Positions 12,774 through 17,424 are shown, numbered from the stretch's first letter. The stretch: DNA of 64,000 bases from an uncultured Parachlamydiaceae bacterium (GCA_963742415.1 CAVULX010000003.1:64001-128000); one strand, 5' to 3'. Notes: generated from the sequence alone by a model not told the origin. Numbers and translations: made by a program.

Positions 12774-14585
12774 ATGGGGTTATCAAGACAAAAAAAGGAC
12801 TCTTCAACATCCAAGTTAGAAGATGCCATCAAAATTCTGACCGCATTCAACAACGAAAATGAACATACCGAAGAGAACTCCTTGCAAAAGACCATTCATC
12901 TTATGCGGGACTTTTTTGCAGCCCGTTTTTCAGATAAAAGCCGACAAGAAATCGCCCAAAAGAATCAGCAAGACACCTCTAAACTTCTAAATGCCATCGA
13001 TATTTTAAAAAGTCACTTTATTTTTTTAGAAAAATTGCTTCATGGGTCTCCTCAACAACAAAAGCTGGCGGCGTCTGCTTTAGCGGCCATAGACCGGTAC
13101 AATACCATCATTGAAAATGCACAATCCAAAAATTCCTCTTTAAGATCACGCATCGATGCATTTTTTGCTGAAAATAATGAAACTTTTCAAGCTAAAGATT
13201 TAGCCAGAATTCATCTCCCGCCCCTTGCTTCTTTGCAAAAGAAGTATGGAGCCAAAGAAAAATCGGAAGAATTTGTCCTCCGAAAAGTCACTTTGCAAAA
13301 GCTGACACTTCCCACCTCATGTCAAAAAAAAATTTTCCATTTGTCGCAAATGGTCGTCCCTGTTTTTCCATTGCCCCTCTATGAGAGATCGGACTTAAGC
13401 AAACAAGCTATTGAATTATTTCACATGAAAGCTATTTCTTTGATTGAAAAGCATGGACTCCTCTCGAATAGTGAAGCACGCGCAGCCTTGCGCAAAACAC
13501 CACTAAATATTGTGTCAGAGGATTCTGTTTCTTCATGTACAGCCTCTTGCACTTTGATTCCTTTCCCCGGCCACACGATTGCTGTCACCGGTTCATTTAA
13601 AAAAGATCCCTCTTCAGGAAAATATTCGATCCCCGATCCTCAAAGTTTTTTTGTTTCTTTTGCCTCCACTCAAACCGGTTTTCCTCACCCCTTGCAACAT
13701 CATGGAGGTGGGTTTCCAGATTTGCTTCCCCTCTTTCCACATGACCTGGATAAAATGCCCCTTTTTAAATCTTTGTATGAAAGAAAGCGAAATTTAGCTT
13801 GCATGTTGTTGAATGATGAGAAAATGATCGCCTACGCTAAGCATCTGATTTCTTTAAGAAGAGCCGTTTTTGAAGACCATTTTTCCCAATTCATCGAGTT
13901 GCACCAACAGTTATGCACCGCCATTGTCACCGCTGCGCCTGAAAGTCTTGTTCAAGAAAACATGACCCAAATAATACAACACTACTTTCAACGTTTGAAA
14001 CACCTGCATGCCCCCTTTGATTATTTAGCGGAAACTTATGGAATCATCCATGAAACCTTTGTCATCAGGCCTCTTGAAAAATTGCAACAGATGTGGCTTG
14101 AAGCAGATCCACAGTCAACTTTTGTACCTGAAAACATCTTTAAAAATGAGATCAATCGCAACCTTAAAGAGCTTCGCGATCAACACCAAATAGCTCAGTC
14201 CGAGCTCGAGCAAAGCGCGATAAATTTTATCGCCGGGTTTGGAGCGCTTTTTGGGATTTCTTGCTTACCGATTTTATTGCAGCAGTTGTCTGAAAGCATG
14301 AAATTCTCCCCTCCATTCTCCCCTCCATTGCTAAATGAATTTGAAAAGAAAATTCAAGCCGCCAATTTTAAACAACAGGAAGCCTTCTTGAATGATTTTG
14401 AGAATTCTTGCTTTGATGAGAATGGTGAAATTGTCTTTCACGAAGATGATGAAAATATTGGAAAGCTCAAAGATAAAATAGGAAGCCTTTTAGATGGAGA
14501 AATCAACCTTTTTAAAGGACCTTTGCATCCCTCTAGATTGGCTTCAGAGTTGGAAGCTTATTATCGAGACAGATCTGCTGATTGA
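12774..14585 (+). CDS. Hypothetical protein (603 aa)
   Basis: Long ORF co-oriented with the upstream genes. No recognised motif. Confidence 0.75.
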   Translation: MGLSRQKKDSSTSKLEDAIKILTAFNNENEHTEENSLQKTIHLMRDFFAARFSDKSRQEIAQKNQQDTSKLLNAIDILKSHFIFLEKLLHGSPQQQKLAASALAAIDRYNTIIENAQSKNSSLRSRIDAFFAENNETFQAKDLARIHLPPLASLQKKYGAKEKSEEFVLRKVTLQKLTLPTSCQKKIFHLSQMVVPVFPLPLYERSDLSKQAIELFHMKAISLIEKHGLLSNSEARAALRKTPLNIVSEDSVSSCTASCTLIPFPGHTIAVTGSFKKDPSSGKYSIPDPQSFFVSFASTQTGFPHPLQHHGGGFPDLLPLFPHDLDKMPLFKSLYERKRNLACMLLNDEKMIAYAKHLISLRRAVFEDHFSQFIELHQQLCTAIVTAAPESLVQENMTQIIQHYFQRLKHLHAPFDYLAETYGIIHETFVIRPLEKLQQMWLEADPQSTFVPENIFKNEINRNLKELRDQHQIAQSELEQSAINFIAGFGALFGISCLPILLQQLSESMKFSPPFSPPLLNEFEKKIQAANFKQQEAFLNDFENSCFDENGEIVFHEDDENIGKLKDKIGSLLDGEINLFKGPLHPSRLASELEAYYRDRSAD

Positions 14586-14586
14586 A

Positions 14587-14803
14587 CACAATAAAGAACA
14601 GGATATGCAAGATCGCCTGCGGCGCCAGGATACGCAGGATATAAACCAATTTTTTATCCTGCGTATCCCATAGGCATCAAGCTAAGTTAAGCCATTTCTT
14701 GCCAGGCTGAAAGCCTGGTAAAAATGGTTTTATCTTAGCTTGATGCCTATACCTGCTTATCCTGGCGCCGCAGGCGATCTTGCATATCCTGTTCTTTATT
14801 GTG
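14587..14803. repeat. Compound palindrome: CAGGAT/ATCCTG-type outer hairpin with a nested ~81-bp TIR element (14670-14750) that holds a REP-like hairpin
   Basis: Outer arms of ~50 bp are near-perfect. The inner 17-bp TIR is ATAGGCATCAAGCTAAG/CTTAGCTTGATGCCTAT. The core CCAGGCTGAAAGCCTGGT also occurs at 21723. Lies between convergent genes. Confidence 0.85.
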
Positions 14804-14808
14804 CTTTA

Positions 14809-17424
14809 CTAAGAATAATATTGATGGCCTTGAGACTGTTTTTCATTCGACTCAATTTTATTTTTCACTTTTTCTATCGCATTTTTGAAGTCCTTCTTAT
14901 CAACTATTGACATAGAAGCAAACTCAGTGGAATTATCGGGAATTTTAGCCTCCCTTAATCTTTTCAAAGAAGCCATCGAGGCAAGTTTGACAACCAATTC
15001 AATGTCGGCTCCTGACAAACCCTTGGTGCGGCTTGCTAGTTTTGTGAAATTTACATTTTCATGCAAAAGTTTTTGCTTCTTCAGCTCTTCCGAGTGTACT
15101 TTAAAAATCTCTTCCCGTCCGTTTTTTCGAGGAAGCGGGATTTTTACTTCCCTATCAAAACGTCCAGACCGTAAAACAGCAGGATCTAACAATTCTTTGC
15201 TGTTAGTTGTTCCAATCATTAGAAATTTATACTGATCAACGCCATCAGACAAAGTTAAAAATTGATTGACCACGCTATTATGGACAGGTGATCCGGAGTC
15301 TTCCTTCCTTTTAGAAAGGATTGCATCCATTTCTTCCAAGATAAGGACATGAATTTTATTTTTCATGGCATGCGCTTTAGCCAAATTAAAAATCTTCCTC
15401 AAATTTTCTTCCGATTGTCCGACCCATTTATTTAATATAGAGGGGCCGTTAATAACACTTAGCTGCTTATTCCCATCCGTACAGCCAATCATATCGGCGA
15501 TAGCGACTGCTAATCTTGTCTTGCCGCAACCCGGAGGACCTTCCAATAACAACCCCCGGACAGGCTGCAACCCCCTCTTTTTCATTTCATTTGGATAAGA
15601 GAATTGGGTCAAGATTTCATCGATAATTGTATCAAATTCCGTATCTAATCCTGCTAACTTAAATTCTTTAAGAATAGCTTTGGGATCCTCATAGAACCCT
15701 TTTTTACTATTCTCAATAACCACTTCCTCGCACTCGCTGCTAAATTCGATCTTGGTCTTTTCATTAATTTGGCCGAGCCTGTTGAAATTACTTCCTTGAT
15801 TTTTTATTTCTGCAAATTCAAGACACTCAATTTGAATTTTAACTTCCGGGTTTTGTTTGAGGTCTAACTTGATGACCTGCCCCTGTACAATCCCCACTTT
15901 GACCTGTTCACGAACAGCTTCCAATAACTCTTCTTCCGTCACATCTAATCTAACCCTATGCCCTTCTCTAAAAGTTCTTGGGACTACGGCAGCCTTTACT
16001 TTATCCAGAGGATGGAGTTGAGCATTTTCCACCAAATAAATCCCCAACTTAGGGTTGAGATTTATTTTGAGCTCGGTTCCATCCCTTATTATCCAACCAA
16101 TTTTTCCTTCGGAATTATTCCGATTGAATTTAGGATCAAAAGGGCTTCCTTTAATAACTTTAATATGGATATTTTTTTGCCCAAGAGAGATGACTAGCAG
16201 TTGCTGATTTGAAATCGGGGCTTGGATCTCAGATAATTTTTTTAGGATTTCTTCAGCATTGATCCAATATAACTTAGTGCTTGTGCTTTCTTCGCCCGAT
16301 TTGTCGACAATGGAAACCACTTCAAACAGGATCGTTTTTGCTTCTGTTACATTGCCTCTAATCCTAAGGTATGTGTTATGAGGCTTAAAAATAAATTTTT
16401 TTGTTTTATCCACAGGAAAATTTAAAATTGGGATCTGCGGATTTTCGTCTTGCATTACATCATAGATTTTATTCGGGGTGACAAATTTGGTAAAATATAA
16501 GCTGACATATTCTCCACTACGTAATTCAGACTTAAATTTATTTTTAAGATACATCTTTCCCCCATTTTCTGTGGCATTTTTTAATGCCAACTCCTTGAGG
16601 AAATTGTAGTCAAAAAACACGGGAACTTCTTCGGGATGATTGAGATGATAAGTTTTCGGAATCTTGACCACAAAATAGCATTTGGAGTCAGGCTCATCTT
16701 CGGCATTTTCACCAATCCTGACATCGGTACAACTTTTTTTAGGAAGCAGCTTGAAGTTTGTTTCCTCCTCTACACAGCCATACGGGAAATGGAAGTTGAA
16801 TGCATTCTCCTTGGCACCCATTTTTAAAATGGAAGCAACATACTTTCCGTCATTAAATGTAAAAAGGAATTCTTGCCCTCGAGCTACAATTTGATTTTTA
16901 AAAATCTCCCTCAAAGTTTTTGACAAAGATTCTTTTACTAAAACATCAGCTTCTTGGGGTATGGAGAGGCCTTCGTTAAATTTAGAAATTTCTATCGTTA
17001 TCGAACTCAATGGATGCACCGGGGTTTGCCTTGTGTAAAATGGTGAAATCCACGTGGAGGAGGACTTAGCGGGAAAAAAGCACGAGGCAAAACTCATTTC
17101 CTTGTTTTGCGTGACATTAATTCCTATGCAATCATCCTCCAAAGAGGGGTGGATGCAAGCGATGTAGACTTTATTCGCAACTTGCAGATGCTTGGGTTTT
17201 GCCATGTCGGTTTCATGTTTAAAAAGAGCCTCAAAAACAACTTTGGACATCCAAATCACATTGCGGGAAGCATCTTCAAAAGAAGGGAGCATGATGGCTT
17301 GAACAAGAGTTCCAATTCTTTCAATTTTTTCTTGAAGAGAAGCAGATTCCTGAGTGACGATAATTTTTGATTGATCTTTTTGCCAGATTTCTCCTCTTAA
17401 TGGTTTTACGCCTTGTGCTTGCAT
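14809..17424 (-). CDS. NSF/Sec18-like AAA+ ATPase (N-domain-like region plus a single D1 domain)
   Basis: AGLDTEF, RGLLLEGPPGCGKT, VINGPSILNKWVGQSEENLRKIF, HVLILEEMDAI, VHNSVVNQFL..DGVDQ and IGTTN..LLDPAVLRSGRFD. The N region FKNQIVARGQEFLFTFND resembles NSF. Confidence 0.8.
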   Translation of the reverse strand: MQAQGVKPLRGEIWQKDQSKIIVTQESASLQEKIERIGTLVQAIMLPSFEDASRNVIWMSKVVFEALFKHETDMAKPKHLQVANKVYIACIHPSLEDDCIGINVTQNKEMSFASCFFPAKSSSTWISPFYTRQTPVHPLSSITIEISKFNEGLSIPQEADVLVKESLSKTLREIFKNQIVARGQEFLFTFNDGKYVASILKMGAKENAFNFHFPYGCVEEETNFKLLPKKSCTDVRIGENAEDEPDSKCYFVVKIPKTYHLNHPEEVPVFFDYNFLKELALKNATENGGKMYLKNKFKSELRSGEYVSLYFTKFVTPNKIYDVMQDENPQIPILNFPVDKTKKFIFKPHNTYLRIRGNVTEAKTILFEVVSIVDKSGEESTSTKLYWINAEEILKKLSEIQAPISNQQLLVISLGQKNIHIKVIKGSPFDPKFNRNNSEGKIGWIIRDGTELKINLNPKLGIYLVENAQLHPLDKVKAAVVPRTFREGHRVRLDVTEEELLEAVREQVKVGIVQGQVIKLDLKQNPEVKIQIECLEFAEIKNQGSNFNRLGQINEKTKIEFSSECEEVVIENSKKGFYEDPKAILKEFKLAGLDTEFDTIIDEILTQFSYPNEMKKRGLQPVRGLLLEGPPGCGKTRLAVAIADMIGCTDGNKQLSVINGPSILNKWVGQSEENLRKIFNLAKAHAMKNKIHVLILEEMDAILSKRKEDSGSPVHNSVVNQFLTLSDGVDQYKFLMIGTTNSKELLDPAVLRSGRFDREVKIPLPRKNGREEIFKVHSEELKKQKLLHENVNFTKLASRTKGLSGADIELVVKLASMASLKRLREAKIPDNSTEFASMSIVDKKDFKNAIEKVKNKIESNEKQSQGHQYYS

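Follow-up and report, generated by a model that had tools for sequence, protein, structure and literature searches.

NSF is the eukaryotic enzyme that separates the proteins of membrane fusion from one another, and it is a hallmark of the endomembrane system. Its D2 domain is the one that serves for oligomerisation. A divergent and probably monophyletic 'Type 2' NSF-like protein, which has a D1 domain only, was described from the Mimiviridae by Khalifeh, Neveu and Fasshauer (Traffic 2022, PMC9546365), with putative homologues in Waddlia, Estrella, Criblamydia and two other Chlamydiae. In the passages of that paper used here, the homology is said to reach into the N-terminal part of the protein, some members have a second AAA domain, and the function is given as unknown. 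The subject of the present analysis is a gene of this kind, located at 14809-17424 in a stretch of 64,000 nucleotides (hereafter the window) from an uncultured Parachlamydiaceae bacterium (GCA_963742415.1 CAVULX010000003.1:64001-128000). An original prediction, made from the DNA alone, had called its product an NSF/Sec18-like ATPase and a possible mimic of the SNARE machinery. Since the existence of the family is already known, the window gene adds a further, rather divergent member to it.

We propose, with a probability of roughly 60%, that the gene belongs to the Type 2 NSF-like family, which environmental chlamydiae have in common with giant viruses of the Mimiviridae type, and that its product is a host-acting unfoldase with a single ring. 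What carries this proposal is the observed ancestry, architecture, conservation of catalytic residues and distribution of the family. The protein would have descended from the N-D1 part of a eukaryotic NSF and retained the NSF-N fold and the D1 motor, with the N_B subdomain amplified to four tandem copies, D2 lost, and a C-terminal tail of the form hydrophobic-tyrosine-any residue (Hb-Y-X) gained. It may assemble into a single hexameric ring which, using ATP and a conserved aromatic pore loop, would pull, unfold or disassemble protein substrates, with the long N_A-(N_B)x4 arm capturing these substrates or their adaptors. Such a protein would be delivered into the host cytosol and act there on eukaryotic host proteins, presumably by a route other than the canonical alpha-SNAP interface of NSF.

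The open reading frame (ORF) lies on the minus strand and is intact, with an ATG start and 871 codons followed by a stop codon. A Pfam scan of the 871-residue protein finds a single AAA domain (PF00004, residues 625-764, E 1e-31) followed by its lid (PF17862, residues 790-826), and no second AAA domain. The protein stops 41 residues past the D1 lid and has no NSF D2, as the original prediction had noted. Across residues 1-580 Pfam gives no match above threshold, the only trace being a faint one to CDC48_2 at 168-191 (E 0.067). From N- to C-terminus the protein thus consists of N_A, then four modules resembling N_B, then D1, and last a tail of 41 residues (Table 1).

The AAA domain belongs to the NSF D1 clade, and not to Cdc48. 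Its best single-stretch matches in the PDB are to NSF/Sec18 D1, at 182-187 bits, versus 149-151 bits for D1 and 134-138 bits for D2 of VAT. For a less diverged paralog (G030a) the corresponding scores are 230 bits for NSF D1 and about 137 bits for each VAT ring. Searched with a profile of the family AAA domains, full NSF D1 domains score 263-279 bits, compared to 152-213 for Cdc48 D1/D2, 144-179 for FtsH and 154-156 for PAN. NSF and the family also have in common an insertion of 8 residues before Walker B and another of 4 residues in the lid, both missing from the six Cdc48 D1/D2 rows of the same alignment. All of the strings quoted in the original prediction are found in the translation (NGPSILNKWVGQSEENLR, VHNSVVNQFL..DGVDQ, GLDTEF, SITIEI, FKNQIVARGQEFLFTFND, ISNQQLLVISL and IVQGQVIKLDL), and the NSF strings that it set beside them (NGPEILNKYVGESEANIR, VHDTVVNQLL..DGVEQ and GLDKEF) occur in a named NSF fragment (P0200). 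Among shorter proteins, the window's own AAA region retrieved no named NSF, and the G030a domain did retrieve named fragments.

A careful tree was calculated with IQ-TREE (LG+C20+F+G4, 71 domains, 253 columns, rooted on FtsH). Rows dropped from it for long branches, redundancy or truncation were G040, P0132, P0048, P0013_D1, P0096, P0043, P0184, P0182, P0211, P0236, P0240, P0004, P0003 and L007. In this tree the family, the eukaryotic NSF D1 domains and two unnamed proteins with a transmembrane (TM)-D1 layout form a joint clade with full support (ultrafast bootstrap, UFBoot, 100; SH-like approximate likelihood ratio test, SH-aLRT, 100), within which the 25 chlamydial rows are monophyletic (100/93), as are the 13 eukaryotic NSF rows (99/96). 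The two unnamed proteins (P0070 and P0072, 367-368 residues, from metagenomes) have a transmembrane-looking segment at the N-terminus that leads directly into an NSF-D1-type domain; their place in the tree is beside eukaryotic NSF (92/85) and not with the chlamydial family, and they end in ...YSRY or ...YSKY.

The alternative that most directly concerns the AAA domain is that the protein is a divergent prokaryotic ATPase of the Cdc48/VAT/ARC type, with a superficial likeness to NSF. Whole-protein rankings against the PDB and NCBIfam do indeed put VAT and Cdc48 on top, and a related chlamydial genome (G007) encodes a canonical two-ring protein of this kind. The rankings are misleading because the lone query domain matches both rings and the scores of the two stretches are summed; stretch by stretch, NSF D1 outscores them. 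The model of the N domain also resembles NSF N (Z 18.6) more closely than p97 N (Z 14.3), and a grouping of the family with the Cdc48 clade is rejected, under the model used, by the approximately unbiased (AU) test (delta log-likelihood 108.6, p 4.75e-9) as well as by IQ-TREE itself. We give this alternative next to no chance. The G007 protein (L014, a 701-residue ORF) has the arrangement CDC48_N-D1-D2, with its rings in the Cdc48 D1 and D2 clades, and because of it we conclude that chlamydiae can carry both kinds of ATPase.

The N-terminal region gives a matching picture. In the AF2 model, residues 40-250 have the NSF-N fold, that is, a double-psi barrel and an alpha/beta roll (predicted local distance difference test, pLDDT, 90.8; predicted template modelling score, pTM, 0.86). 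All 30 of the Foldseek matches listed for this segment, which hold ranks 1-46, are N-domains of NSF or Sec18, the best being 1qdn (E 3e-12, template modelling score 0.77). With VIA, 31 NSF/Sec18 entries have Z of 14.7-18.6, the top one being 1cr5 (Z 18.6, 2.7 A over 165 residues), compared to Z of at most 14.3 for the N-domains of p97, Cdc48 and SPATA5. At the level of sequence profiles, residues 43-239 of a 65-sequence family profile match the whole NSF N domain at 98.2% by hhalign (E 3e-14, 180 columns). The derivation from NSF suggested in the original prediction is therefore upheld for the N region by the structural matches and for the AAA domain by the tree. Of the two results that the original prediction had named as refuting it, an AAA domain branching with prokaryotic Cdc48/ARC and an N region lacking the NSF-N fold, neither was obtained.

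An N_B-like module is repeated in the N region. The repeated module can be seen in an alignment of eight full-length sequences from genomes of the same order, and the similar segments noticed in the original prediction turn out to be real repeats. Module B1 (residues 136-245) matches N_B of NSF at 94.4% over 98 columns, while residues 40-135, taken alone, match N_A at 64.5%. B1 in turn matches B2 at 92.6%, B3 at 97.1% and B4 at 96.9%, and B2 matches B4 at 76.9%, with cross-type controls at 0.4% or less. Residues 246-585 are modelled with pLDDT 88.1 and pTM 0.81, and the structures matched by this model are limited to N-domains of the NSF/Cdc48/SPATA5/PEX1 group. In VIA superpositions, the modelled B4 aligns with Sec18 N_B (Z 10.8-11.2, root-mean-square deviation about 2.9 A over about 101 residues), and B2 and B3 together align along the whole NSF N domain (Z about 10.5). 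We assign B2-B4 as N_B-like because they are tied to N_B both through B1 and through structure. In some relatives (P0264-P0271, of 1186-1229 residues, and P0353, of 1410 residues) the N region is about 900 residues long and the N profile matches it in two stretches, which points to further N_B-like modules in these proteins.

The catalytic residues of the motor are well kept. Of 109 D1 domains from the family, all 109 have the Walker A lysine, 106 each have the Walker B glutamate and the sensor-1 asparagine, 102 have an aromatic residue (W, Y or F) in the pore loop, and 107 and 106 have the two arginine fingers. The family must do something, because its catalytic residues are under clear constraint.

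The C-terminal tail, which the original prediction had overlooked along with the earlier publication of the family, is conserved. The count was made on 150 proteins, these being the window protein and 149 representatives, of which 113 carry a tail of 15-80 residues behind an AAA domain; the other 37, which are fragments or proteins lacking an AAA domain, were left out. The pattern [MLIVFYW][YF]x fits 87 of the 113 tails, with a penultimate tyrosine in 68, against a background of 7% for Y and F combined. In many of the 26 that do not fit, the tyrosine sits one position earlier (...SYIS, ...SYVM). This pattern, HbYX, defines the tails of proteasomal ATPases and, in archaeal Cdc48 and PAN, suffices for activation of the 20S proteasome, as stated in the parts of PMC3493965 used here, where the background of HbYX-ending proteins is put at about 4% in archaea; for bacteria the corresponding figure, from a passage of PMC11475706, is 0.72%. 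Two roles are suggested by the tail, either attachment to the 20S proteasome of the host or a contact within the ring that would replace D2.

This leads to a reading in which the protein mimics a proteasome activator. The Hb-Y-X tail would attach the ring to the alpha-ring of the host's 20S proteasome, in the manner of the PAN, Rpt and archaeal Cdc48 tails, and host proteins captured by the N arm would be degraded with no need for ubiquitin. The tail of the window protein is YYS and that of the giant-virus homologue IYM. A proteasome or HslV gene (PF00227) was not found in the window's genome (G000, 84% complete) or in any of five other family-bearing genomes (G010, G002, G335, G030 and G027, 95-97% complete), by a search that found it in 10 of 14 well-known genomes; therefore an endogenous proteasome partner is unlikely. 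Against this, the proposal is built on a motif of three residues, 26 of the 113 tails do not have it, and packing of the tail against an adjacent subunit, in place of the lost D2, is another option. In addition, eukaryotic p97 has a tail of this kind, and there it binds cofactors with PUB or PUL domains and not 20S. Docking of an NSF-derived ring on the host 20S, through a tail conserved from chlamydiae to a giant virus in genomes that have no proteasome, is thus a tentative idea, and we consider the mimic of a proteasome activator rather unlikely.

The original prediction favoured a different function, in which a host-derived effector binds host alpha-SNAP and SNAREs through its NSF-like N domain, traps or disassembles the complex, and so redirects fusion. 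The models predict an NSF-N fold whose two subdomains retain their canonical arrangement, and the D1 domain is of NSF type with its pore loop and catalytic residues intact. In NSF, the pore-loop tyrosine threads SNAP-25 and is needed for disassembly of SNAREs, according to the portion of PMC6160233 used. The question is also one that the passages of Khalifeh et al. (PMC9546365) leave open. The interface itself can be judged from four basic residues of NSF (R67, K68, K104 and K105), which we take to be alpha-SNAP contacts, no confirming paper having been found. In one NSF (P0236) these positions are R or K; in the window protein they are N107, K108, E151 and G152, and in the profile alignment of the family (n=65) only 13, 10, 3 and 4 sequences have K or R at the four columns, the K68 column being mostly E or D. 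The putative contact positions, as far as they are identified and aligned correctly, are thus mostly non-basic. Furthermore, three extra N_B modules between the canonical N domain and the ring would alter the placement of a SNAP-SNARE complex above the pore. Canonical alpha-SNAP binding is therefore doubtful on the sequence, and a SNAP/SNARE trap working through the canonical interface, as first suggested, is not supported by these columns; we think this explanation improbable on the whole. The original prediction also proposed a search of the genome for SNAP-like partners. A search of the window's genome (84% complete) for a gene of the SNAP family (PF14938) found none, and this decides nothing because the host would supply SNAP (and SNAREs).

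We return to the proposal of a host-acting unfoldase, for which the distribution of the family is informative. When 1.84 billion representatives were searched with a profile restricted to the N region, 232 cluster representatives (clustered at 50% identity) matched at E of 0.001 or less, 82 of these being at 1e-30 or less. A word-index search of 5.8 billion proteins matched the N region only to itself, which reflects the limit of the index, as the profile search gave 232 relatives. The nearest full-length relative found is 30% identical to the window protein. Homologues are deposited as 'nsfA [Chlamydiales bacterium]' (G027, of the same order) and 'AAA family ATPase [Waddliaceae bacterium]', and by its source names the family is chlamydial. 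These names lend indirect support to the view that the window's organism is itself a chlamydia. Most of the 149 representatives listed have an N region of about 550-650 residues and one AAA domain, with one subgroup of about 1190-1230 residues that has a longer N region and another of about 1165-1283 residues that has a second AAA domain. In all 17 of the latter that were tested, the best match of the second AAA domain is D1-type (14 to the family's own D1, 3 to a named NSF D1) and none matches pieces of NSF D2, so the second domain is a duplication of D1. One long family member carries three AAA domains.

Within the phylum, the N profile detects the family in 24 of 401 genomes (20 of 335 high-quality ones), spread over 21 of 212 genera. 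All 24 fall in the window's order; family f8 has 0 of 90 and family f5 has 1 of 69. A single genome can have up to three paralogs. In one paralog, from G040 (L013:1869-4112, plus strand, 748 residues), the N arm is shorter and both Walker motifs, A (GFLGNNKT) and B (HIEGID), are degenerate; its branch in the first tree is very long, and judging by these motifs it is probably catalytically dead. Two other proteins fuse an F-box to a D1 of the same clade, and have neither the N arm nor the Hb-Y-X tail: these are at L015:1130-2290 (plus strand) in G002, of 387 residues, and at L016:1033-2139 (plus strand) in G010, of 369 residues. Their F-box-like Pfam scores are 35.1 and 26.0 bits, respectively (cut-off 24.3), and in the G010 fusion Walker A is weakened (GPSGTGKT kept) and the second region is shortened.

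The family also extends to giant viruses. An 811-residue ORF on a 1.26-Mb giant-virus contig (L021) encodes a Type 2 NSF-like protein that shares the N region, with the layout N_A-(N_B)n-D1, has one D1 and terminates in ...HIYM. It matches the deepened family N profile with E 9e-38 over profile positions 73-580; a first N profile, made from 8 sequences, had missed it. Its D1 nests among chlamydial D1 domains in a quick tree and is 53% identical to that of representative P0264. A different viral protein (L023), an N-D1-D2 NSF as in 'Type 1', lies inside eukaryotic NSF (97* clade, quick tree) and matches only the N_A+B1 part of the family N profile.

These observations bear on the more conservative view that the protein is a housekeeping unfoldase of the chlamydial cell, serving in quality control or in preparation of secretion substrates and never meeting host proteins. 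Its syntenic chromosomal context behind opp-like genes would suit such a role, as would the fact that no signal sequence was detected by eye. Such a role is difficult to reconcile with a family that no more than 24 of the phylum's 401 sampled genomes contain, for which reason we conclude that this is not a core function; with a copy number that varies, one paralog having lost its catalytic motifs; with the fusion of the same D1 to an F-box, which is a module directed at eukaryotes; and with a giant virus, which has no bacterial cytoplasm, carrying the same architecture. We regard the housekeeping role as very unlikely. A setting in the eukaryotic cytosol is favoured by the homologue in a giant virus and by the fusions to an F-box. 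Together with the patchy distribution and the expansions of paralogs they give indirect support to a host-acting effector, and a secreted protein of this type is plausible. The window's genome has type III export-gate genes (FHIPEP). The variable leader, in which inspection by eye shows no hydrophobic signal segment, could possibly be a secretion leader.

A number of points weigh against the proposal of a host-acting, NSF-derived, single-ring unfoldase. Secretion, ring assembly, ATPase activity and a substrate are all predictions, and assembly of a ring without D2 is an assumption, because D2 is the domain through which NSF oligomerises. The first acid of Walker B is D in 102 of the 109 family D1 domains and E in only 5, and the window copy is one of the latter; the sequence ILEEMD at 695-700 bears out the remark in the original prediction that the motif reads EEMD and not DEID. 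Because of this rare change, the ATPase rate of the window copy may be lower than that of its relatives. The 8-residue NSF-type insertion is shortened in the window copy. The extra modules match NSF N_B only weakly when compared directly (B2 8.9%, B3 1.4%, B4 9.1%), and B2 matches B3 at only 2.6%. The Cdc48 sequences in the trees are archaeal and bacterial; eukaryotic p97, Pex1/6 and Rpt were compared by PDB scores only. In the FtsH-rooted tree the family is sister to the sampled eukaryotic NSFs and is not nested within them, and for this reason the tree points to no particular donor or direction of transfer. Finally, two opp-like ABC-ATPase genes lie upstream on the same strand, with a gap of 72 nt before the NSF-like gene in which no promoter-like site was found on the minus strand, and in G010 the ortholog adjoins the same oppF-like ABC-ATPase gene. 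With this conserved adjacency the locus looks like an ordinary chromosomal context and not an effector island.

The positions of the features of the protein are collected in Table 1.

Table 1. Features of the NSF-like gene and its product (window coordinates; residue numbers refer to the 871-residue protein)
Feature	Position	Strand	Basis or remark
Whole ORF, 'Type 2' NSF-like single-ring AAA+ ATPase	14809..17424	-	871 aa; Pfam, trees, AU test
Variable N-terminal leader, residues 1-39	17308..17424	-	aligns poorly across the family
N_A subdomain (double-psi-barrel half of NSF-N fold), residues 40-135	17020..17307	-	boundary approximate; AF2, Foldseek, VIA, hhalign
Module B1, canonical N_B subdomain of NSF-N, residues 136-245	16690..17019	-	boundary approximate; hhalign, structure matches
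Module B2, extra N_B-like repeat, most divergent, residues 246-360	16345..16689	-	hhalign, AF2, VIA
Module B3, extra N_B-like repeat, residues 361-470	16015..16344	-	hhalign, AF2, VIA
Module B4, extra N_B-like repeat, residues 471-580	15685..16014	-	hhalign, VIA against Sec18 N_B
Linker, NSF-D1-type AAA domain and lid, residues 581-830	14935..15684	-	Pfam, PDB scores, trees, AU test, insertions shared with NSF
Walker A GPPGCGKT, residues 629-636	15517..15540	-	lysine kept in 109/109 family D1 domains
Pore loop 1 NKWVG, residues 665-669	15418..15432	-	aligned with the YVG loop of NSF
Walker B ILEEMD, residues 695-700	15325..15342	-	first acid E, not D; catalytic E retained
LRSGRFD with arginine fingers R752 and R755, residues 751-757	15154..15174	-	R kept in 107/109 and 106/109
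C-terminal tail ending Y-Y-S (Hb-Y-X type), residues 831-871	14812..14934	-	family tail count; motif as in the part of PMC3493965 used

The original prediction had described the gene as an AT-rich insert beside a nested repeat. The first part does not hold: the GC content of the gene is 0.383, compared to 0.412 for the window, 17 of 123 equal-sized windows have a lower value, and the ortholog in G010 is syntenic, so that the gene neither stands out in composition nor qualifies as a recent AT-rich insert. The repeat is indeed present, as a nested palindrome of 217 nt at 14587-14803, between two convergent genes. Its outer arms are 52 nt long and 98% complementary, and enclose a pair of inner hairpins. 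The palindrome is made up of members of a dispersed repeat family, with units of about 50 nt; its parts have 126 matches in the genome, often in inverted pairs, and because of these matches it is not tied to the NSF-like gene. It may be an element resembling repetitive extragenic palindromes (REP) or miniature inverted-repeat transposable elements (MITE), or a bidirectional terminator. On its other side is a 603-residue ORF at 12774-14585 (plus strand), convergent on the NSF-like gene, which has no Pfam family. A homologue of this ORF with 40% identity is found about 2.3 kb from the NSF-like ortholog in G010, weaker matches are found in G002 (on a different contig) and G040, and none in G030 or G027. 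It was considered as a linked partner and rejected, being near the ortholog in G010, on another contig from it in G002, and not found in G030 and G027.

As the family is already published, the value of the window gene lies chiefly in its correct annotation. The family itself is of wider interest, in that a bacterial and viral offshoot of NSF that keeps the motor and replaces both the oligomerisation ring and the adaptor interface shows how parasites rebuild the machines of their hosts. With 232 representatives, and 21 of 212 sampled genera, it is large enough for comparative work. The tail and the array of N_B modules give rise to two hypotheses that can be tested at the bench, namely docking on 20S and recognition of a target other than SNAP. 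If docking on the proteasome were true, parasites would have turned the host's SNARE-recycling motor into a private cap for ubiquitin-independent degradation, with targets picked by the arm of four N_B modules or, where a short paralog is concerned, by its F-box.

It remains to compare the protein with known systems. It resembles canonical NSF and Sec18 in its N-domain fold, D1 clade, two D1 insertions, pore loop and catalytic residues. It is unlike them in having no D2, three extra N_B modules and an Hb-Y-X tail, in being encoded by a bacterium, and in that the putative alpha-SNAP contact positions are, by profile alignment, not kept basic. With archaeal Cdc48/VAT and PAN it has in common that it is a classical-clade AAA protein of the unfoldase type, with an N domain of the double-psi-barrel type and an Hb-Y-X C-terminus; it differs in that its AAA domain lies outside the Cdc48 and PAN clades, in having one ring, and in that no 20S or HslV gene was found in the 6 family-bearing genomes searched. 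The 'Type 1' viral and bacterial NSFs, such as the Legionella santicrucis protein named in PMC9546365, are similar in being encoded by NSF genes of intracellular parasites of eukaryotes, and differ in that they retain N-D1-D2 and fall within eukaryotic NSF. The closest likeness is to the Type 2 NSF-like proteins of the same paper: a D1-type AAA domain only, homology with the virus in the N region and a clade of its own are all found here. The main text of PMC9546365 contains none of the words HbYX, proteasome and F-box, its supplements lying outside this comparison. Beyond the passages of that paper used here, the present analysis adds the four N_B-like modules, the Hb-Y-X tail, the F-box fusions, the putative loss of SNAP contacts, and the finding that the second AAA domain of the long forms is a duplicate of D1 and not NSF D2.

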